Source: a virus
Lineage: Duplodnaviria; Heunggongvirae; Uroviricota; Caudoviricetes
DNA length: 64,000 nucleotides
Strand: one strand, 5' to 3'
Virus record (IMG/VR): IMGVR_UViG_3300017917_003521
Below, piece after piece: positions 5,840 through 58,440 of the stretch. The notes under the pieces are model-generated. The model was not told the origin of the DNA. It did no database searches and saw only the letters and a program-made list of their open reading frames with translations. Positions within the stretch are counted from its first letter, which is position 1; every line of letters starts with the position of its first letter. Both the position numbers and the translations under genes were made by a program.

Positions 5840-5884
5840 ACTAAAAACATCATTTAATATATAAATAAAAAATATTTTTCAAAT

Positions 5885-6154
5885 ATGAGTTCAATGAAAG
5901 AAATGGCAATTAGAGAGTATATCACTAAAGTTGATTTTAAAAATAGTGATTGGAAACTTTCTCAATTAAAAGAAGATATGAGAAAATTTTTAGGTGAAGA
6001 GCCTGGAGTTGATGTCATTTACAAAAAAGATGTTATGGTTAATGAATTTACAGGTGAATCTAAAGAGTTTTTAGATATTGATAAAATACAAATAGTATTT
6101 ACAGATACTGATGATAAATTTAAAAAGATAGAATTCATTTTAGGTGATATTTAA
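5885..6154 (+). CDS. hypothetical protein
   Basis: 89-aa ORF tightly packed in the + block. Confidence 0.4.
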   Translation: MSSMKEMAIREYITKVDFKNSDWKLSQLKEDMRKFLGEEPGVDVIYKKDVMVNEFTGESKEFLDIDKIQIVFTDTDDKFKKIEFILGDI

Positions 6155-48841: not shown

Positions 48842-49618
48842 ATGAATTACAATCCGGTCAAACAAACAAAAAATTATGAAAAAAACAACACAACAGAGCC
48901 AACTTTTGCTGATATATATAATATAAATTATTCGGGTGAGCAATCACCATTAAAGGCAAAAAACGGCAATATTGAGGATGAACTAATGACTCCTCAACCA
49001 AAAAATGAACGGCAAATTATGGAATCGAAGGCGATTTTATTTAGCGAACAAGAAAAAATCTTTAGAGAAAGAACGGGTAAGGATTTCTCTACACTTTACA
49101 CAAAGTATTACCCAAAATTAGTTTATTTTACTTCAAAAATTACTAATGACCCTCAAAAAGCCGAAGACATCTCAACAGACTCATTCATGGCGGCTTTTGA
49201 AAAAATTGAGAAATATGAAAAAGAAAAATCTCAATTTTCTACCTGGCTATTTACAATAGCAAAAAACTTAGCACTTCAAGATCTTAAAAGCGAAAAGAAA
49301 ACTATGTCTCTTGACATTGAGTTTGATGATGAAGGTACAACTATGAAAGACTTTATCCAAGAAGAGGATAATGACAATCATTTACATGAAATTCATGCTA
49401 AAAAGGCTGAGATCATGAAAAGACACATATCAAACCTGAAAAGTCCATATCGTGATGTTATTGAAATGAGAGAGCTTAAAAGAATGTCATATAAAGATAT
49501 TTCTGATAAATTAAATCTTAACCTATCAACTGTAAAATCTCAAATTAGAAATGGAAGAGCTATATTAGTTCGTGAAACTAAGAAAGAGTTTGATGCAATT
49601 GATGAAATGCTAATGTAA
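48842..49618 (+). CDS. sigma-70 family (ECF-like) RNA polymerase sigma factor
   Basis: Region-2-like 'AEDISTDSFMAAFEKIEKY...FSTWLFTIAKN' and region-4 HTH 'MRELKRMSYKDISDKLNLNLSTVKSQIRNGRAIL'. Confidence 0.65.
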   Translation: MNYNPVKQTKNYEKNNTTEPTFADIYNINYSGEQSPLKAKNGNIEDELMTPQPKNERQIMESKAILFSEQEKIFRERTGKDFSTLYTKYYPKLVYFTSKITNDPQKAEDISTDSFMAAFEKIEKYEKEKSQFSTWLFTIAKNLALQDLKSEKKTMSLDIEFDDEGTTMKDFIQEEDNDNHLHEIHAKKAEIMKRHISNLKSPYRDVIEMRELKRMSYKDISDKLNLNLSTVKSQIRNGRAILVRETKKEFDAIDEMLM

Positions 49619-51300: not shown

Positions 51301-51872
51301 TGTTATCTTACCAAGATATTTTAAATCTTATTAAAGAATCTGATTTCACACTTGTTGGTTATACCTTCAAGGATGAAAGAATTAAAGATGAATTACTTTC
51401 TAATTTTAACTATGTTGAGATTGAAAAAGTCAATTCGTCTTTTTCTTTTAAATCATTTTTAAGAGACCTTAAACTAGAATCTTTATTAGAAAATAAGTCT
51501 GTAAAAAATCCAGAGTATATTCTTTTAGATATTAATAATATAAGATTTGAAGAAAAGGATAGTTTAGGTGGTAGACAAAGAGTTATTAGAAGTTTTGTTG
51601 AAAATCTTAGAAGTCAATTATATACAGATTATTCTGAATTTCCTGGAAGTTCTCAATTTAAAGTTATTCTAACATCTTCTTTATATAGAAGTGGTGTAAA
51701 TTCTAATAATGATGGTATTAATAATTTCAGTGGGGGAAGTGGTCCAATTTATTCTTCTGATTTAGCTTTGACTATAATTGATAATAAGATTACAATAATC
51801 AAGAATAGATTTGGCAACAATGGTGATGAAATAGTATATAAATTTCAAGAAAATTTAACTACATTTGCATAA
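51300..51872 (+). CDS. hypothetical protein
   Basis: 190-aa ORF. Confidence 0.4.
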   Translation: MLSYQDILNLIKESDFTLVGYTFKDERIKDELLSNFNYVEIEKVNSSFSFKSFLRDLKLESLLENKSVKNPEYILLDINNIRFEEKDSLGGRQRVIRSFVENLRSQLYTDYSEFPGSSQFKVILTSSLYRSGVNSNNDGINNFSGGSGPIYSSDLALTIIDNKITIIKNRFGNNGDEIVYKFQENLTTFA

Positions 51873-52306
51873 TGAAAATTACAACAAATAGAAAAGCATA
51901 TTACGAGTATTTTGTGTTGGAAGAATTCAACGCAGGAATTATGCTATTAGGTAGTGAAGTTAAATCTATTCGTGATGGTAACGTAACCATTACAGACTGT
52001 TTTGCTTATATTTCAAATGGTGAAATTTTCGTAAAGAATATGAAAGTTGCTAAATACAAACAAACTCATATTTTTGAAAAGCATGATGAAAATCGTGATA
52101 AAAAAATTCTTCTTAATAGAAAAGAGATAGATAAAATAGAAAAACTTTTACAAGATAAAGGTACAACTATGGTTCCTTTAGAAATATTTACCTCACATAA
52201 TAGAATCAAAGTTAAGATTGGTGTTGTAAAAGGCAAGAAGCTATACGATAAAAGAGAAACTATTAAAAAGAGAGATATCGAAAGAGAAATCCGCCGTAGC
52301 GTCTAA
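51872..52306 (+). CDS. smpB: SsrA-binding protein SmpB
   Basis: 'NRKAYYEYFVLEEFNAGIMLLGSEVKSIRDGNVTITDCFAYISNGEIFVKNMKVAKY' matches the SmpB N-terminal core, and the C-terminal basic tail is present. Confidence 0.75.
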   Translation: MKITTNRKAYYEYFVLEEFNAGIMLLGSEVKSIRDGNVTITDCFAYISNGEIFVKNMKVAKYKQTHIFEKHDENRDKKILLNRKEIDKIEKLLQDKGTTMVPLEIFTSHNRIKVKIGVVKGKKLYDKRETIKKRDIEREIRRSV

Positions 52307-54344: not shown

Positions 54345-54797
54345 TATAAGAATTAACCAAGTCATTAAGATAAGAGTCTTCAAAAGACAAGCTTTTTGCT
54401 TCACAGTTATGATATAATGAATAAAGTGTGAGTCTTAATGAAATTATGGTAGTAAGTAGGTGACAAATAAGTTAACACCCTTGTTAAAAATCACTGAACT
54501 ACCTCGTATTAATATACTATGATAAAAATGAAGGGTGTAGATATGAAATCGAGTTGGTGATAAATATCTCAATAACTAATGAATAAACCCAACTCAAAGA
54601 AGATTTTACCGAGCAGAATGGTAACACTGCTCAACCAAGGCGATGAGCCATTAAAAGGTAATCCTAAGTGATGAGGTCACTAAAAGTCAAGTTCCAGGTT
54701 ACACATTGTAATTTGGGTAGAGGTTCTCGGATTCCGACCATTCTTGACAGAAGTTCCAAACTCTTCTTTTTAATTGAAATTTATTAAAAAACAAAAT

Positions 54798-55202
54798 ATG
54801 ACACTGAAAGAAAAAATTAATGCTGACTTTATGACAGCATTTAAGTCAAAGAACATGGTAGCAAAGAGTATCCTTTCTGTTGTAAAGGGTGAGATTCAAA
54901 CTGTTGAGAAAAACACTGGTTCAGATAATCTTTCAGATGCTGAGGTAACTAAGATCCTAACAAAAACTGTTAAGTCTCTTAAAGAAACTATTGCTCTGGC
55001 AAATGATGAAAAATCTAAACTTGAATTAGAAGTTCTTGAGGTATATCTACCAAAACAAATGTCCAAGGAAGAAGTTACTTCTAAGGTAAATGAGTTAGTT
55101 GGTTTAGGTATCACTCAAATCGGTGCTATTATGAAGGAGTTTGCTTCATTACCAGCTGATAAAAAAATGGTTTCAGAAGTTATCAAAGAAGTTATCAAAT
55201 AA
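54798..55202 (+). CDS. GatB/YqeY-domain protein
   Basis: 'MTLKEKINADFMTAFKSKNMVAKSILSVVKGEIQ' matches the YqeY N-terminus. The start is set at the internal ATG of track ORF 54774-55202. Confidence 0.55.
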   Translation: MTLKEKINADFMTAFKSKNMVAKSILSVVKGEIQTVEKNTGSDNLSDAEVTKILTKTVKSLKETIALANDEKSKLELEVLEVYLPKQMSKEEVTSKVNELVGLGITQIGAIMKEFASLPADKKMVSEVIKEVIK

Positions 55203-55751: not shown

Positions 55752-55784
55752 ATTTGGTGAATTAAAAAAGACACCGTATATTTG
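55752..55784 (+). promoter_or_regulatory. Bacteroidetes-type promoter (TTTG ... TATATTTG)
   Basis: TTTG 55753-55756 and TATATTTG 55777-55784 with a 20-nt spacer. Same framework as the elements at 54312 and 55822. Confidence 0.45.
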
Positions 55785-55821: not shown

Positions 55822-55854
55822 ATTTGGTAAATTTAAAACTTTTTACTAATTTTG
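55822..55854 (+). promoter_or_regulatory. Bacteroidetes-type promoter (TTTG ... TAATTTTG), near-identical to element at 54312
   Basis: ATTTGGTAAATTTAAAACTTTTTACTAATTTTGTATAAA compared with ATTTGGTAAAATAAAACTTTATTACTACTTTTGTATAAG at 54312. Confidence 0.5.
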
Positions 55855-56028
55855 TATAAAATAAATCAAAAGAGACAAAAACTTTTTAATATATAAACAA
55901 ATGAGAACATTTAATACACATAAACATTTTAGTAAATCGAATAAGTGGTTTAGCAACCAGTTCGGTACTGAAAGTGTATTGCTCTCAAATAAGATGTAAC
56001 AAATCTATTTATACAAGACAATATTCAA

Positions 56029-56067
56029 AAGTCCGAACTTAACAAAAAGTTCGGACTTTTTTGTTTT
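56029..56067 (+). terminator. strong hairpin plus T-tract immediately upstream of first tRNA array
   Basis: AAGTCCGAACTT / AAGTTCGGACTT perfect 12-bp stem, 7-nt loop, then TTTTTTGTTTTATATGG. Confidence 0.55.
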
Positions 56068-56071
56068 ATAT

Positions 56072-56158
56072 GGTGTCGTTATTGTTAACGGAGAGTCGCA
56101 AGACGAGCATCTGGCTCTGTGAAAGCCAGGGTACGGGTTCGAATCCCGTACGACACCC
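56072..56158 (+). tRNA. aberrant tRNA-like gene (87 nt) with His-type GUG anticodon arm, encoded G-1:C73 and extra nucleotides in the D-region
   Basis: Hand fold. G-1 sits on the GTGTCGT/ACGACAC acceptor with discriminator C. The 3' two-thirds are perfect: TGGCT-CTGTGAA-AGCCA, then GGGT, then ACGGG-TTCGAAT-CCCGT. About 30 nt lie between the acceptor and anticodon stem, against about 20 in a canonical tRNA. Confidence 0.4.
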
Positions 56159-56164
56159 AAACAA

Positions 56165-56237
56165 GGAACCTAAGCTAATCAGGTGAAAGCACTGGACTGA
56201 AAATCCAGGGAGCCCGGATCGTTACCGGGAGGTTCCA
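56165..56237 (+). tRNA. tRNA-Phe(GAA)
   Basis: GGAACCT/AGGTTCC acceptor. Anticodon arm CTGGA-CTGAAAA-TCCAG, T-arm CCCGG-ATCGTTA-CCGGG. 73 nt. Confidence 0.65.
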
Positions 56238-56244
56238 CTAAAAT

Positions 56245-56318
56245 GGTGAATGTAGCTCAATCGGTAGAGCGTTGGTTTGTGGAGCCAAAGGCAGCGGGAT
56301 CGTAACCCGTCATTCACC
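56245..56318 (+). tRNA. tRNA-His(GUG) with encoded G-1
   Basis: G-1 then GTGAATG/CATTCAC, discriminator C. D-arm GCTC-AATCGGTA-GAGC. Anticodon arm TTGGT-TTGTGGA-GCCAA. Confidence 0.7.
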
Positions 56319-56323
56319 CAAAA

Positions 56324-56395
56324 GGAGACTTAGCTGAGACGGTTTAGCGTCTGGTTGAAGCCCAGAAGAGGTCGGTTCGATTCCGGCAGTCTCCA
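56324..56395 (+). tRNA. tRNA, anticodon GAA by hand fold (second Phe-like; G37)
   Basis: GGAGACT/AGTCTCC acceptor. Anticodon arm TCTGG-TTGAAGC-CCAGA, T-arm GTCGG-TTCGATT-CCGGC. 72 nt. Confidence 0.5.
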
Positions 56396-56401
56396 CAAAA
56401 T

Positions 56402-56483
56402 ACAGGTACTCATTGGTGTGACCAGCCGGTTCCAACCCGGTAATTCGTAAGAGTGGCTGTAGGTTCGAGTCCTACTACCTGTG
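56402..56483 (+). tRNA. aberrant tRNA-like gene (82 nt) with Trp-type CCA anticodon loop and 17-nt variable region
   Basis: ACAGGTA/TACCTGT acceptor. Anticodon arm CCGG-TTCCAAC-CCGG, T-arm GTAGG-TTCGAGT-CCTAC. The D-region is non-canonical. Confidence 0.4.
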
Positions 56484-56498
56484 CTAAAAGACAAACCT

Positions 56499-56569
56499 AC
56501 GGGTGTGGTGAAATGGTATCATGACGGTCTCCAAAACCGTTGTTCTTGGTTCGAGTCCAGGCACCCGTG
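56499..56569 (+). tRNA. tRNA-Trp(CCA)
   Basis: ACGGGTG/CACCCGT acceptor. Anticodon arm ACGGT-CTCCAAA-ACCGT, T-arm CTTGG-TTCGAGT-CCAGG. Confidence 0.65.
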
Positions 56570-56614
56570 CAAAATGATTAAGATGATGAAAACTAAGTTG
56601 AAATATAAACGCTA

Positions 56615-56645
56615 GGCAACGACCAAATGAATACGGGTCGTTGCC
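56615..56645 (+). repeat. perfect 10-bp-stem hairpin (GGCAACGACC / GGTCGTTGCC, 11-nt loop) inside tRNA array spacer
   Basis: Inverted repeat read directly from the sequence. It lies between tRNA-Trp and tRNA-Lys and has no T-tract on the + strand. Confidence 0.5.
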
Positions 56646-56657
56646 ATTAAAAACAAT

Positions 56658-56730
56658 GATTCCGTAGCTCAATTGGTGGAGCTTCCGGCTTTTAACCGGA
56701 AGGATGTGGGTTCGAGTCCCACCGGGATCA
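56658..56730 (+). tRNA. tRNA-Lys(UUU), canonical type I
   Basis: GATTCCG/CGGGATC acceptor, A73. D-arm GCTC-AATTGGTG-GAGC. Anticodon arm TCCGG-CTTTTAA-CCGGA, the same loop as E. coli tRNA-Lys. T-arm GTGGG-TTCGAGT-CCCAC. 73 nt. Confidence 0.8.
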
Positions 56731-56739
56731 CTAAATATT

Positions 56740-56826
56740 GATTCTGTCGCTTAGTGGCTATAGCAACTGGCTTTTAACCAGTAGAGATAATGTTCTCAAC
56801 CGTGGGTTCGAGTCCCACCAGGATCA
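56740..56826 (+). tRNA. type-II-like tRNA (87 nt) with Lys anticodon UUU, A73 and 19-nt variable arm
   Basis: GATTCTG/CAGGATC acceptor. Anticodon arm ACTGG-CTTTTAA-CCAGT. Variable arm A-GAGA-TAATGT-TCTC-AACC. T-arm identical to the canonical Lys gene. Confidence 0.55.
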
Positions 56827-56832
56827 CAAAAC

Positions 56833-56916
56833 ACTCCTGTCGCTCAGAGGCCGAGAGCAACTGGCTTTTAACCAGTAGACGAAAGTCCATCGTAGGTTCG
56901 AATCCTACCAGGGGTA
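56833..56916 (+). tRNA. type-II-like tRNA (84 nt) with Lys anticodon UUU, A73 and 15-nt variable arm (GAC-GAAA-GTC)
   Basis: ACTCCTG/CAGGGGT acceptor. D-arm GCTC-AGAGGCCGA-GAGC. Anticodon arm ACTGG-CTTTTAA-CCAGT. Variable AGACGAAAGTCCATC. T-arm GTAGG-TTCGAAT-CCTAC. Confidence 0.55.
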
Positions 56917-56921
56917 CAAAT

Positions 56922-57006
56922 GACTCCGTTTCCGTAGAGGCCGAACGGTTCTGACTCTTAATCAGATGACGAAAGTCCACCGTGGGTTCGAATCCCACCG
57001 GGGTCA
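56922..57006 (+). tRNA. type-II-like tRNA (85 nt) with Lys anticodon CUU, A73 and 15-nt variable arm (GAC-GAAA-GTC)
   Basis: GACTCCG/CGGGGTC acceptor. Anticodon arm TCTGA-CTCTTAA-TCAGA. Variable TGACGAAAGTCCACC. T-arm GTGGG-TTCGAAT-CCCAC. Confidence 0.55.
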
Positions 57007-57009
57007 CAA

Positions 57010-57068
57010 ATTGAAACTAAAAACTAAAAAGTAATTTTTTAGATAATTTTATAGTTTTTAGTTTTAAT
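57010..57068 (+). repeat. AT-rich nested inverted repeat downstream of tRNA array
   Basis: AAACTAAAAACTAAAAAG pairs with AGTTTTTAGTTTT, and an inner CTAAAAAG / TTTTTTAG pairing lies inside it. Confidence 0.4.
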
Positions 57069-57092
57069 ATATACATGAAATAAAATATATTT

Positions 57093-57641
57093 TTGTGTAT
57101 GAAAGAAGAAATAATTAAACTAATAAATGAGGGTTTTACATATGATGATATTACTAAAAAATTAGGTTGTTCTAAAAGTACAATATCTTATCATTGTAAT
57201 AAATTAAATTTAAAAAGTAAAAGTAAAAATATAGATGTAAATAGTGAACTTGTAAATAAAATTAACGAATTGTATAAATGTGGAAATAGCTCTTATACAA
57301 TATCAAAAATTTTAGGAATTTCAAAAAGTACAGCTCTTAAATATATTAGTAAAGAAAATATAAGGACTAAGAAAAAAACTAAAACTAAAAAGGATAAGTC
57401 CGAATACATAATGAGATGGAAGAAAAATCTTAAAAAGAGTTTAGTTGAATACAAAGGATCTAAATGTGAAATTTGTGGATATGATAGATGTATAGAGGCT
57501 TTAGAATTTCATCACTCTGATCCAAGTAAAAAGGATTTTTCAATATCTACAAAATTATTTGGAATTGAAAAAATGAAAAAAGAAGTAGATAAATGTTTAC
57601 TGTTATGTTCTAATTGCCATAGAGAAAAACATTATTTATAA
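57093..57641 (+). CDS. HNH homing endonuclease with N-terminal HTH repeats
   Basis: C-terminal 'CEICGYDRCIEALEFHHSDPSKKDF...LLCSNCHREKH' is an HNH motif. It lies between the two tRNA arrays. Confidence 0.6.
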   Translation: MCMKEEIIKLINEGFTYDDITKKLGCSKSTISYHCNKLNLKSKSKNIDVNSELVNKINELYKCGNSSYTISKILGISKSTALKYISKENIRTKKKTKTKKDKSEYIMRWKKNLKKSLVEYKGSKCEICGYDRCIEALEFHHSDPSKKDFSISTKLFGIEKMKKEVDKCLLLCSNCHREKHYL

Positions 57642-57649
57642 TAAAATTA

Positions 57650-57779
57650 GGGGATGTAGCTCAGTGGTAGAGTTTAAAATATCTCTTTTGAGGTTTTACC
57701 TTGAAAAAGTGTTGATTAAAAGAGTTACTTCGTTTGAATTGAAATCAAAAGGTCGTTGGTTCGAATCCAACCATCCCCG
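57650..57779 (+). tRNA. tRNA-like gene with 59-nt insertion between D-arm and anticodon stem; type-I scaffold, anticodon UGA, G73
   Basis: 5' part GGGGATG-TA-GCTCAGTGGTAGAGT. 3' part TTTGA-ATTGAAA-TCAAA, AGGTC, GTTGG-TTCGAAT-CCAAC, CATCCCC-G. The acceptor pairs perfectly. The 59 nt at 57674-57732 form their own hairpin (CTCTTTT...AAAAGAG). Confidence 0.4.
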
Positions 57780-57790
57780 CTAAAAAAATA

Positions 57791-57822
57791 TTTGTAAATC
57801 TCAGAAAAAAGATTTACTTTTG
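57791..57822 (+). promoter_or_regulatory. Bacteroidetes-type promoter (TTTG ... TACTTTTG) upstream of second tRNA array
   Basis: TTTG 57791-57794 and TACTTTTG 57815-57822 with a 20-nt spacer. Confidence 0.45.
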
Positions 57823-57964
57823 TAGAAACAAAGAATAAAAAATTAATATATAATAAAGTTATGAAAACAATTATGCTTACATCGAAGTCGTCAAGTAGTC
57901 GCTCGTCAAAAACGAGTGAGGTTCGATCGTATTCATAATAGTCGTATAAATAAGATATTATGTA

Positions 57965-58000
57965 AACCCTTCGAACCAAAAGTTTGAAGGGTTTTTTGTT
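57965..58000 (+). terminator. strong hairpin plus T-tract immediately upstream of second tRNA array
   Basis: AACCCTTCGAAC...GTTTGAAGGGTT stem, then the same trailing motif TTTTTTGTTTTATATGG as at 56056. Confidence 0.55.
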
Positions 58001-58006
58001 TTATAT

Positions 58007-58079
58007 GGTTCCATCGTCCAATTGGACAGGACACTCCGCTACGAACGGAGAAATGAGGGTTCGAATCCTTCTGGAACTA
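58007..58079 (+). tRNA. tRNA-Arg(ACG)
   Basis: Acceptor GGTTCCA/TGGAACT (G1-U72). D-arm GTCC-AATTGGACA-GGAC. Anticodon arm CTCCG-CTACGAA-CGGAG. T-arm GAGGG-TTCGAAT-CCTTC. Confidence 0.65.
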
Positions 58080-58084
58080 CAAAT

Positions 58085-58168
58085 GGAGAAGTAATTTGGC
58101 CGGCGCCAAACACAGTCTTGAAAACTGCTGGTACCTTCGGGTATGGGGATCGACACCTCACTTCTCCG
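58085..58168 (+). tRNA. tRNA-Ser(UGA), type II, G73
   Basis: GGAGAAG/CTTCTCC acceptor. Anticodon arm ACAGT-CTTGAAA-ACTGC, the same loop as E. coli Ser UGA. Variable arm TGG-TACC-TTCG-GGTA. T-arm TGGGG-ATCGACA-CCTCA. Confidence 0.6.
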
Positions 58169-58173
58169 CAACC

Positions 58174-58256
58174 GGAAGGAGTCCGAATGGACGAGGACAC
58201 CGCCTTGAAAGCGGCTGGGTCGAAAGGCTTTGGGGGTTCGATTCCCTCTTCTTCCG
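58174..58256 (+). tRNA. tRNA-Ser(UGA), second copy, type II, G73
   Basis: GGAAGGA/TTCTTCC acceptor. Ser-like D-arm TCC-GAATGGACGA-GGA. Anticodon arm ACCGC-CTTGAAA-GCGGC. Variable arm with GAAA loop. T-arm GGGGG-TTCGATT-CCCTC. Confidence 0.55.
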
Positions 58257-58261
58257 CAACT

Positions 58262-58347
58262 GGAGAGTAAACTAGTCAGGGTACTAGCACCGCCTGCTAA
58301 GCGAGTGGCACGGTAAAACGTGTGAGTTTCGAATACTCTGCTCTCCG
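58262..58347 (+). tRNA. tRNA-Ser(GCU), type II, G73
   Basis: GGAGAGT/GCTCTCC acceptor. D-arm CTAG-TCAGGGTA-CTAG. Anticodon loop CTGCTAA. Variable arm CACG-GTAAAA-CGTG. Confidence 0.55.
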
Positions 58348-58354
58348 CTAAATT

Positions 58355-58440
58355 GGAGAATAAACTGATGAGGTCATCAGCCACGCCTGGAAAGCGTCGG
58401 GTACGTTCAATCGTATGGGTTTCGAGTACTCTGTTCTCCG
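58355..58440 (+). tRNA. tRNA-Ser(GGA), type II, G73
   Basis: GGAGAAT/GTTCTCC acceptor. D-arm CTGA-TGAGGTCA-TCAG. Anticodon loop CTGGAAA. Variable arm TACG-TTCAAT-CGTA. Confidence 0.6.

Follow-up and report, generated by a model that had tools for sequence, protein, structure and literature searches.

Why would a phage encode the same anticodon twice, once in a tRNA of ordinary size and once in a tRNA whose body carries extra RNA? The question is raised by a 64,000-nt stretch of DNA from a virus of the class Caudoviricetes (IMG/VR record IMGVR_UViG_3300017917_003521; the whole stretch is referred to here as the window), in which six tRNA genes for His, Phe and Trp follow one another between positions 56072 and 56569. 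We find that each of these amino acids has two tRNA genes, old paralogues that share an anticodon, that the oversized copies of tRNA-His and tRNA-Trp are maintained by compensatory change, and that the array is preceded by a leader region predicted to act as an attenuator. The reading that we favour, with a probability of roughly 0.5, is that the six genes form one regulated battery of working phage tRNAs in which paired isoacceptors, an on-demand attenuator and insurance through shape act jointly. The genes are as follows.

56072-56157, + strand: long tRNA-His(GUG), 86 nt from G-1 to C73 (manual reading and covariation in relatives)
56165-56237, + strand: tRNA-Phe(GAA) number 1, Phe1 (ARAGORN 56165-56238; Rfam tRNA model, 52.7 bits)
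56245-56318, + strand: tRNA-His(GUG) of normal length, 74 nt (ARAGORN 56246-56319; Rfam, 60.3 bits)
56324-56395, + strand: tRNA-Phe(GAA) number 2, Phe2 (ARAGORN 56324-56396; Rfam, 60.4 bits)
56402-56483, + strand: long tRNA-Trp(CCA), Trp-A, 82 nt (ARAGORN 56402-56484, 83 nt)
56499-56569, + strand: tRNA-Trp(CCA) of normal shape, 71 nt (ARAGORN 56499-56570, 72 nt; Rfam, 61.8 bits)

All six lie within 1 nt of where an initial annotation of the window had placed them, and the anticodons assigned there were right, as judged with ARAGORN and Rfam and, for the long tRNA-His, by hand and by in-silico deletion. The Rfam cut-offs are 29 bits for the tRNA model (RF00005) and 47 bits for the tRNA-Sec model (RF01852). 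Phe1, the 74-nt tRNA-His, Phe2 and the short tRNA-Trp all qualify as elongator tRNAs, by a score of at least 29 bits or an ARAGORN call, and the long tRNA-Trp is called by ARAGORN, which found ten tRNA genes in the 64-kb window, all within 56165-58080. The two GAA genes, which the initial annotation had described as different from one another, are both called Phe(gaa). As the members of a pair are only 55-64% identical, the His, Phe and Trp pairs consist of old paralogues rather than recent duplicates.

Related loci were gathered by exact-match scans with the invariant Phe1 sequence, which yielded two IMG/VR contigs, ten metagenome contigs and LR745206.1 (L001 in our numbering), for a total of 13 loci. 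LR745206.1, an unannotated record of 634,780 bp from an uncultured phage, is the sole similar record in the phage database, with 78% identity across the tRNA array. Gene order is kept among the relatives: leader, (long His), Phe1, His, Phe2, (variant Trp), (Trp), Lys leader, Lys, long Lys. Scans of IMG/VR with motifs from the leader and from the long tRNA-His matched close relatives only.

The normal-length partners Phe1, the 74-nt tRNA-His and Phe2 are not fully canonical themselves. Phe1, which is identical in 11 of the 13 loci and differs slightly in L004 and L011, has A8 instead of U8, a 3-bp D stem, the T loop ATCGTTA (A54/U58), the anticodon loop CUGAAAA and A73. The 74-nt tRNA-His has an encoded G-1 (56245) opposite C73 (56318), as first annotated, with the anticodon loop UUGUGGA and the T loop ATCGTAA; positions 54 and 58 are thus swapped to A54/U58 in the T loops of both genes. 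Phe2 combines a standard body and A73 with the anticodon loop UUGAAGC (U32, G37, C38). The short tRNA-Trp bears A1:U72, C2:G71 and G73.

The long tRNA-His, read by hand, combines G-1:C73 with acceptor and T stems of 7 and 5 bp, the T loop TTCGAAT, the anticodon loop CTGTGAA on a 7-bp anticodon stem and a variable loop of 2 nt; its D loop, enlarged to 19 nt, retains GG. The GUG anticodon arm, T arm and G-1:C73 had been recognised correctly in the initial annotation, with the length overestimated by one (87 nt, to 56158). That annotation had put about 10 extra nucleotides between the D region and the anticodon stem, and there it was mistaken: the excess length is a 10-nt hairpin, GTC-GCAA-GAC (56095-56104), inside the enlarged D loop, where it sits at the exposed 20a/20b side. 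ARAGORN calls the gene as tRNA-His(gtg) when this hairpin is removed in silico. The check with ARAGORN that had been proposed returned the same anticodons and a call for the long tRNA-Trp, with the long tRNA-His called only after this deletion.

Long tRNA-His genes are present in the window, L002, L007, L009/L010 and L127. Across four distinct sequences all 27 proposed pairs are standard, and four are compensatory, among them the pair that closes the inserted hairpin (G:C to A:U) and the sixth pair of the anticodon stem (C:G to U:A); the loop of the inserted hairpin is GCAA, GAAA or UUCG. The gene accordingly shows the full set of cloverleaf features, namely the 7-bp acceptor and 5-bp T stems, a 7-nt anticodon loop with U33, G18G19 together with a TTCRANY T loop, and compensatory change. 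This maintenance of its helices led us to reject a pseudogene. Its acceptor and T arms are 7/5 in every relative, not the 8/4 or 9/3 of allo-tRNAs. In LR745206.1 and L006 the same slot holds a normal 75-nt tRNA-His and in three loci it holds none, so the D-loop hairpin of the long tRNA-His is a recent, lineage-specific addition.

The long tRNA-Trp is, as annotated, 82 nt long, with a CCA anticodon and a 17-nt variable region. It is laid out as a 7-bp acceptor stem, one linker base, a 4-bp D stem with a 4-nt loop, a 3-nt linker, a 5-bp anticodon stem and a 5-bp T stem, with the variable arm ATTC-GTAA-GAGT at 56443-56454; its acceptor end has A1:U72, C2:G71 and G73. A degenerate pattern of its core matched 16 IMG/VR contigs of 10-508 kb, and the resulting 17 distinct sequences align without a gap in one shared structure with a GYRA-capped 4-bp variable arm. 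In this alignment 98.6% of the cells are paired, 14 of the 25 pairs are compensatory, and none of 500 shuffles matches these values (n = 17 sequences), which satisfies the cloverleaf definition and, with compensatory change throughout the helices, excludes a pseudogene. The acceptor and T stems have turned over wholly, while the D arm, the linkers, the anticodon stem and the variable arm are nearly invariant.

A covariance model of the family gives the window gene 101.7 bits and tRNAs outside the family, from 108 other sources, at most 42 bits. Scanning 185,579 species-representative genomes for the long tRNA-Trp produced three matches. The first (L124; CAYHBE010000180.1, 4,172 bp) is a phage-like tRNA array binned to an uncultured Dehalococcoidales metagenome-assembled genome, and is probably a mis-binned phage fragment; the array is of the same kind, with two His, two Phe, a long Lys and a long Trp gene. 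The other two, in Kitasatospora, contain no tRNA and look like chance matches. The long tRNA-Trp therefore belongs to a discrete class of tRNA-Trp, found here on viral or phage-like contigs only.

The bacterial identity sets for His, Trp and Lys have been compiled (PMC9976931): G-1, C73 and GUG for His, and CCA, G73 and A1:U72 for Trp. Both His genes of the window have the His set (56072/56157 and 56245/56318), and both Trp genes have the Trp set; in the 17-member family, G73 and A1:U72 are each kept in 14. We infer from these elements that the long tRNA-His would be charged by HisRS and read CAY codons, and that the long tRNA-Trp would be charged by TrpRS and read UGG.

An oversized tRNA could instead be a decaying copy, or be charged by SerRS, LeuRS or TyrRS such that UGG or AAA is misread. 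The top Rfam match of the long tRNA-Trp is indeed the tRNA-Sec model, it combines G73 with a variable arm, some long tRNA-Lys genes (described below) have D arms that by eye resemble those of class II tRNAs, and class II tRNAs with non-cognate anticodons exist in nematodes (PMC3333845) and among allo-tRNAs (PMC5389517). Decay is ruled out by the compensatory evolution in every helix. The determinants of bacterial SerRS are G73, C72, G2:C71 and a variable region of large size, with C2:G71 listed as an anti-determinant (PMC9976931); the long tRNA-Trp has A1:U72 and C2:G71, and its variable stem has 4 bp compared with roughly 6 bp, by eye, in the phage's own tRNA-Ser genes. The long tRNA-Lys genes pair A73 with UUU or CUU, and the long open reading frames (ORFs) of the window read normally under the standard code. 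Because the discriminator and first acceptor pairs fit the amino acid of the anticodon, no change of code is implied, and we regard recoding or decay as extremely improbable. The initial annotation's view that the long copies are not random pseudogenes is upheld by their compensatory changes and by the identity elements that they retain.

Several class assignments for the long tRNA-Trp were tried and rejected. It is not a tRNA-Sec: it scores 29.7 bits against the cut-off of 47, reads CCA and not UCA, has 7/5 arms rather than a 13-bp branch of the 8/5 type and has a D stem of 4 instead of 6 bp, with only the 4-nt D loop and the extra arm in common. It is not an allo-tRNA (12-bp branch split 8/4 or 9/3), as every relative is 7/5, and it lacks a Ser, Leu or Tyr class II identity in that its 17-nt variable region comes with A1:U72 and C2:G71. 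An alternative fold, pairing ACCA at bases 20-23 with TGGY at 53-56, was dropped, being mismatched in the window and in L003 and losing to the D hairpin in RNAalifold.

A second non-canonical tRNA-Trp(CCA), of 72 nt (ACGTCAT...ATGGCGTG), occurs in L002, L005, L007, L009, L010, L012 and L013, with a variant in L001 and L006. Its D arm is tiny, a C bulges from its 7-bp anticodon stem and its variable loop has 2 nt, a shape that recalls the compaction of tRNA-Pyl; ARAGORN misses it. In L005, L009, L010, L012 and L013 it is the sole Trp gene in the stretch of array fetched.

How might such an array be switched on? The region ahead of the first tRNA gene contains the following elements, which the initial annotation had overlooked.

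55753-55784 and 55823-55854, + strand: two tandem Bacteroidetes-type promoter-like sites, TTTG-N18-21-TAnnTTTG (pattern scan)
55901-55999, + strand: leader ORF, MRTFNTHKHFSKSNKWFSNQFGTESVLLSNKM and a stop codon (conserved in 10 of 13 related loci)
55927-55942, + strand: putative attenuator region 1 (TTTTAGTAAATCGAAT), in the leader ORF just after CAT AAA CAT TTT
55959-55973, + strand: putative attenuator region 2 (AGTTCGGTACTGAAA), in the leader ORF, pairing with region 1
56027-56066, + strand: intrinsic terminator, regions 3 and 4, a 14-bp stem and then a T run (terminator scan; 56027-56060 in a narrower delimitation)

The promoter-like pattern, which we take to be the Bacteroidetes promoter consensus, occurs 12 times in the window against 3.4 expected, a number reached in 0 of 100 shuffles; a TAnnTTTG-type motif is also seen by eye upstream of the leader in L001. 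The 32 codons of the leader ORF include 2 for His, 4 for Phe and 1 for Trp. Its core, THK(H/N)FSKSxKWFS, is kept in 10 of the 13 loci, with the two His at shifting positions: loci that lose His9 gain a His at position 14. The TGG TTT codons fall in the loop between regions 1 and 2, whose helix folds at -10 to -15 kcal/mol. Region 3 may pair with region 2 as an antiterminator, lengthened by a conserved GTATTG/CAATAT helix. All eight distinct leaders offer the alternative 1:2, 2:3 and 3:4 pairings, with the 2:3 structure at -16 to -25 kcal/mol compared with -12 to -19 kcal/mol for the terminator alone. The T run of the terminator ends a few bases ahead of the first tRNA gene (56072), and the scan found no promoter-like site between the terminator and this gene. 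As modelled, the element has the structure that defines a leader-peptide attenuator and would regulate the tRNAs that read its own codons.

A second unit of the same design lies further downstream.

57791-57822, + strand: promoter-like site (pattern scan)
57861-57938, + strand: leader ORF, MKTIMLTSKSSSSRSSKTSEVRSYS and a stop codon, Ser/Arg-rich, with 10 Ser and 2 Arg in 25 codons
57964-57994, + strand: terminator, with alternative pairings present (terminator scan)
58007-58440, + strand: tRNA-Arg(ACG) and four tRNA-Ser genes (two UGA, one GCU, one GGA); ARAGORN calls the Arg gene only
58085-58167, 58174-58255, 58262-58347 and 58355-58440, + strand: the four tRNA-Ser genes, missed by ARAGORN

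In this AT-rich phage genome, the second leader uses TCG, TCA, AGT, CGC and CGA, codons decoded by the Ser(UGA), Ser(GCU) and Arg(ACG) tRNAs that follow it. L004 has an unrelated leader, MKTTTTYSRSRSRSPLILV (TCA CGA TCA CGC TCG CGT TCA), ahead of Arg(GCG), Ser(UGA) and Arg(UCG). The short ORFs at 55901-55999 and 57861-57938 both carry codons for the amino acids that would be sensed, and both units have mutually exclusive 1:2, 2:3 and 3:4 pairings with a U-tract terminator, unlike the Lys leader described below. The first two tRNA-Ser genes match both the Rfam tRNA and the tRNA-Sec models (the latter at 43.4 and 36.8 bits), and the other two were read by eye; all four have long D stems with 4-6-nt loops and UUCG/GAAA-type variable arms. 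Judged by eye and by the tRNA-Sec matches, they are apparently of the Sec-like 8/4 type, with an 8-bp acceptor stem and a 4-bp T stem.

In a scripted survey, 63 tRNA clusters were preceded by a hairpin and T run, and for 52 of these a small ORF ends at the hairpin. These leaders form 28 families, in which cognate residues number 211 against 141.5 expected, a statistic that 0 of 20,000 permutations of the amino-acid sets reach, in a survey that includes spurious ORFs and loci picked by tRNA patterns. Examples are L082, where MTTMMKQIKQHCIRWF... stands ahead of tRNA genes for Trp, Ile, Lys, Gln, Cys, Met, Arg, His and Phe, and L073, where ...TKKKKKP... precedes five tRNA-Lys genes. Putative leader-peptide attenuation of phage tRNA arrays appears to be general. 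Attenuator-like leader ORFs with terminators were seen in the window (55901-56066 and 57861-57994) and in L001, L002, L004-L007, L009, L010, L012, L013, L073, L082, L101, L108, L112 and L118.

On the reading that we favour, host-type promoters would transcribe the 32-codon leader ORF with its His, Phe and Trp codons. If these were read fast, regions 1 and 2 would pair, the 3:4 terminator would form, and transcription would halt a few bases short of the first tRNA gene. If charged tRNA-His, tRNA-Phe or tRNA-Trp were scarce, the ribosome would stall over region 1, regions 2 and 3 would pair, no terminator would form and the array would be transcribed. The tRNAs would in this way be produced on demand, when their codons are hard to read. 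Leader and terminator fit a role in replacing tRNAs when decoding fails, without proving it. For read-through that would increase as the cognate charged tRNA runs short, the agreement of leader composition with the tRNAs encoded downstream is indirect support. Two differently shaped isoacceptors, whose loops also differ at positions 32, 37 and 38, would serve as insurance: a host factor that senses the form of a tRNA or the context of its loop, for instance an anticodon nuclease or some other defence that inactivates tRNAs, could not remove all decoders of one codon together. The extra RNA sits in the D loop of tRNA-His and in the variable arm of tRNA-Trp, the two places where an L-shaped tRNA can carry it, and the acceptor/T arm bound by EF-Tu stays 7/5. 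Evasion of host tRNA nucleases, which the initial annotation had suggested for anticodon nucleases, is plausible; this step draws on precedent (PMC11555353, PMC10264068) and on the rapid gain and loss of the hairpins among close relatives. Phage-encoded tRNAs allow infection to succeed despite retron-Eco7 and PrrC170 (PMC11555353), and variants of the anticodon loop have been put forward as a means of escape (PMC10264068).

The genes might alternatively encode no decoders at all, being tRNA-like decoys for a host nuclease or regulator, punctuation for processing of the polycistron, or regulatory RNAs. There is precedent in irregular G-1 tRNAs from metatranscriptomes, which are charged by HisRS and go unused in E. 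coli translation (PMC5389517), and relatives of the window hold a structured RNA of about 75 nt, without tRNA features, between Phe1 and His. Against this, the anticodon loop, U33, the anticodon, the G18G19/T-loop elbow, the 7/5 arms and the discriminator are all under selection, which is more than decoys or processing punctuation would require. The 72-nt tRNA-Trp, moreover, is the only Trp gene in the five stretches named above, where it stands behind a leader that retains its Trp codon. A role outside decoding is in our view very improbable.

The initial annotation had also supposed that the pairing of normal and altered isoacceptors is systematic. The evidence agrees: an extra hairpin in the D loop or variable region recurs in the tRNA-Lys genes of the window, in Phe2 of L003 and L008, where the D loop has GGC-GTAA-GCC, and in many other phage tRNAs. 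The Lys genes follow the Trp pair.

56574/56586-56615, + strand: Lys-rich small ORF, (M)IKMMKTKLKYKR and a stop codon (kept in 12 of 13 related loci)
56658-56730, + strand: tRNA-Lys of normal length (ARAGORN, Rfam)
56740-56826, + strand: tRNA-Lys(UUU) with extra variable arm (ARAGORN, Rfam)
56833-56916, + strand: tRNA-Lys(UUU) with extra variable arm (ARAGORN, Rfam)
56922-57006, + strand: tRNA-Lys(CUU) with extra variable arm (ARAGORN, Rfam)

The small ORF reads MKTKLKYKR in the window, with variants in relatives such as MKSKLKYKR and MKTIKMKYKQKYKR. At its stop codon begins a 10-bp hairpin (56615-56645; -19 kcal/mol), likewise kept in 12 of 13 related loci. All four Lys genes have A73, and three have an extra arm of 3-4 bp, capped in two by a GAAA tetraloop; the variable arms end in short loops, mostly GNRA (GAAA, GCAA or GTAA), and covary among relatives. 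The first long tRNA-Lys has the same acceptor and T arm as the normal one, and A73 with UUU or CUU gives the long genes the LysRS set. Since the anticodon loop is CTTTTAA or CTCTTAA in all Lys paralogues, any protection of these from nucleases would have to come from the shape of the body.

Among 1,254 ARAGORN tRNAs from 124 sources, long forms (at least 80 nt) of normally short tRNAs occur at least once in 56 sources; as the sample is biased by the fetching of loci, these counts are not estimates of prevalence. A generic Lys anticodon-arm pattern, whose matches were mostly ordinary tRNA-Lys, provided a broad sampling of phage arrays. The long forms include 54 of 213 Lys genes, 8 Ile, 5 Asn, 5 Thr, 4 Pro, 4 Trp, 3 His and 3 Met, and 33 of the 54 long Lys genes have a partner of at most 78 nt with the same anticodon in the same locus. 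The long Lys, Asn, Thr, Cys and Trp genes typically gain a short stem closed by a GAAA, GTAA or GCAA loop; in some others, such as Ile(TAT) and Pro, it is longer and more varied.

These inserts can be viewed in another way, as folding aids: GNRA- or UUCG-capped hairpins and longer anticodon stems would stabilise tRNAs that are made fast and may be under-modified, with nothing to evade. The added elements are always thermodynamically stable mini-hairpins, 7-bp anticodon stems occur in the long tRNA-His and in the 72-nt tRNA-Trp of relatives, Lys is by far the commonest species with a hairpin, and charging of E. coli tRNA-Lys drops 140-fold from that of the native form when modifications are absent (PMC9976931). 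Such a role leaves unexplained both the partner without a hairpin that accompanies 33 of the 54 long Lys genes and the gain and loss of the His D-loop hairpin among close relatives, and we think it decidedly unlikely to be the explanation.

The near-invariance of the long tRNA-Trp core bears on a further alternative, that a dedicated phage-encoded partner, whether a synthetase, a modification enzyme or a tRNA-binding factor, reads the remodelled core or the hairpin and so provides a private supply line for these codons, in place of protection from nucleases. Across the 17 sequences, D arm, linkers, anticodon stem and variable arm hardly vary despite the full turnover of acceptor and T stems, whereas the anticodon stem of the normal tRNA-Trp varies even between close relatives. 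The family was seen on viral or phage-like contigs, with no convincing cellular genome; engineered variable-arm hairpins recruit proteins to active tRNAs (PMC7590224); and the window encodes other translation-related proteins, SmpB and YqeY. Yet no synthetase or tRNA-modifying enzyme was found among 20 scanned ORFs of the 64-kb window, in an analysis that made no search for a co-occurring protein, and the hairpin loops of tRNA-His and tRNA-Lys vary freely (GCAA, GAAA, UUCG, TAAA and loops of 5-7 nt), contrary to sequence-specific reading. A dedicated partner thus seems rather unlikely.

Several observations weigh against the regulated battery of shape-insured tRNAs that we favour. The intact long tRNA-His receives no ARAGORN call and only a partial Rfam tRNA match (22.3 bits, 56095-56155), below the 29-bit cut-off. 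At equilibrium the terminator of some leaders is as stable as the antiterminator or stabler, so the switch would have to rely on co-transcriptional kinetics. The Lys leader hairpin, lacking a U tract, is not an ordinary terminator, and the spurious ORFs and tRNA-guided choice of loci in the leader survey temper its result. The Lys anticodon loops are standard, unlike those expected from the loop-mutation route of T5. The near-invariant core of the long tRNA-Trp hints at a specific partner or fold as much as at a steric bump. Finally, LysRS and HisRS are class II synthetases and TrpRS binds its tRNA in a class II-like manner, with an approach from the variable-arm side, from which an extra variable arm could hinder charging.

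We raise tentatively, as possible though doubtful, the broader idea that the tRNA arrays of many environmental phages are self-regulating circuits. A leader peptide written in the array's own codons would sense failing decoding and open a terminator, and the array would then supply, codon by codon, a standard tRNA along with one or more 'armoured' isoacceptors, the latter with D-loop or variable-arm hairpins that would make them invisible to tRNA-cleaving immunity yet usable by synthetases, EF-Tu and the ribosome.

How does the locus compare with known systems? Anti-defence phage tRNAs, the tRNA-Tyr of T5-like phages against retron-Eco7 and a phage tRNA-Lys against PrrC170 (PMC11555353), are likewise clustered and phage-encoded and include Lys, a tRNA known to be cleaved by tRNA-targeting defences (PMC11555353); the notion of replacing or outlasting the tRNAs of the host is shared as well (PMC11555353, PMC10264068). 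As in the anticodon-loop variant tRNAs of T5 (PMC10264068), paralogues here differ at positions 32, 37 and 38, with the Lys loops unchanged. What differs is that the present tRNAs form pairs or sets of body architectures for one anticodon, by means of a hairpin in the D loop or variable arm or a remodelled core, and that their expression is apparently conditional on a leader-peptide attenuator, whereas the T5-like tRNA-Tyr has a strong dedicated promoter.

The leaders share with attenuators of the trpL, hisL, pheL and thrL type an ORF of regulatory codons, mutually exclusive 1:2, 2:3 and 3:4 pairings, a terminator directly before the genes and a conserved design. Amino-acid-operon attenuators control biosynthetic enzymes; here the predicted targets are tRNAs that read the regulatory codons, in phage genomes, and a single leader mixes amino acids (His, Phe and Trp; Ser and Arg; as many as nine in L082) in keeping with the mixed array that follows. 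In the literature that we searched, which excluded most subscription journals, we found no description of leader-peptide attenuation of tRNA genes or arrays, or of Lys, Trp or His phage tRNAs with such hairpins.

Allo-tRNAs and the 8/4 tRNA-Ser and tRNA-His (PMC5389517) are also non-canonical cloverleaves from phage clusters, with small D loops and long variable arms, and the tRNA-Ser genes at 58085-58440 are apparently of this 8/4 kind. However, the published 8/4 tRNA-His lacks G-1, whereas the long tRNA-His is 7/5 with G-1:C73, and the long tRNA-Trp is 7/5 with a Trp-type acceptor. Class II tRNAs (Leu, Ser and bacterial Tyr) and the nematode nev-tRNAs (PMC3333845) share an extra stem-loop between the anticodon and T arms, often GNRA-capped; here, by contrast, the anticodons are Trp and Lys, the extra stems have 3-4 bp, and discriminator and first acceptor pairs agree with the amino acid that the anticodon specifies. 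Engineered aptamer-tagged tRNAs (PMC7590224) demonstrate that a translationally active tRNA can bear a small variable-arm hairpin. Those tags are synthetic and built on an allo-tRNA chassis, whereas the hairpins described here are natural, occur in the D loop as well and are maintained in evolution.

The surroundings of the array contain further features. Proteins encoded nearby, among the 20 ORFs scanned, include SmpB, a YqeY-like protein, a sigma-70-family factor, an NAD-dependent ligase, an S1-domain protein and peptidases. SmpB, the partner of tmRNA (51872-52306; 178 bits), the YqeY/GatB-like protein (54774-55202) and the sigma-70-family factor (48842-49618) lie near the tRNA region; a tmRNA gene is absent from the ARAGORN calls for the window. 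Homing-endonuclease-like ORFs with a helix-turn-helix (HTH) domain and Cys/His motifs (window, 57093-57641; L002, 11870-12430; L003, 4265-4935 and from 5335 onward) sit between tRNA sub-arrays at places that differ from relative to relative, which suggests that they are mobile insertions in the arrays.

Other RNA genes were also noted. The tRNA-like gene at 57650-57779 is normal in its acceptor, D and T arms but has about 50-65 extra bases in the anticodon region, and similar interrupted genes occur in L002 (12966-13120), L009 and L010. A search for a group I intron in the window gene gave no match, and ARAGORN in intron mode assigned these genes inconsistent identities (Glu, Leu and Ser), so the window gene is left unassigned. 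Downstream of the Ser genes in LR745206.1, positions 5843-5915 hold a tRNA-like gene whose CTTCGAA loop gives the anticodon UCG (Arg); it shows no D arm that can be recognised, and a long stretch precedes its T arm. The structured RNA of about 75 nt (GGAGTCCTGATAACAGGAGACCCCCACTCC...AGTGGGG) between Phe1 and His is conserved in L005 (for example, 626-699), L008, L009, L010, L012 and L013; it has covarying helices, and the window has a 7-nt spacer at this place.

Why phages carry tRNA genes is a long-standing question, and this locus makes two parts of it testable. If true, a tRNA-gene attenuator would mean that a phage gauges decoding capacity codon by codon and makes tRNAs only when they are needed. 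The pairs of normal and hairpin-bearing isoacceptors are natural experiments on how far selection tolerates departure from the cloverleaf, and the latter offer substrates for asking whether the shape of the body, beyond the anticodon loop, sets sensitivity to tRNA-targeting defences; they may also serve as orthogonal or tag-bearing scaffolds. Should the idea of armoured, self-regulating circuits prove true, these arrays would represent an inducible, shape-based counter-defence together with a natural catalogue of the tRNA body plans that translation tolerates.

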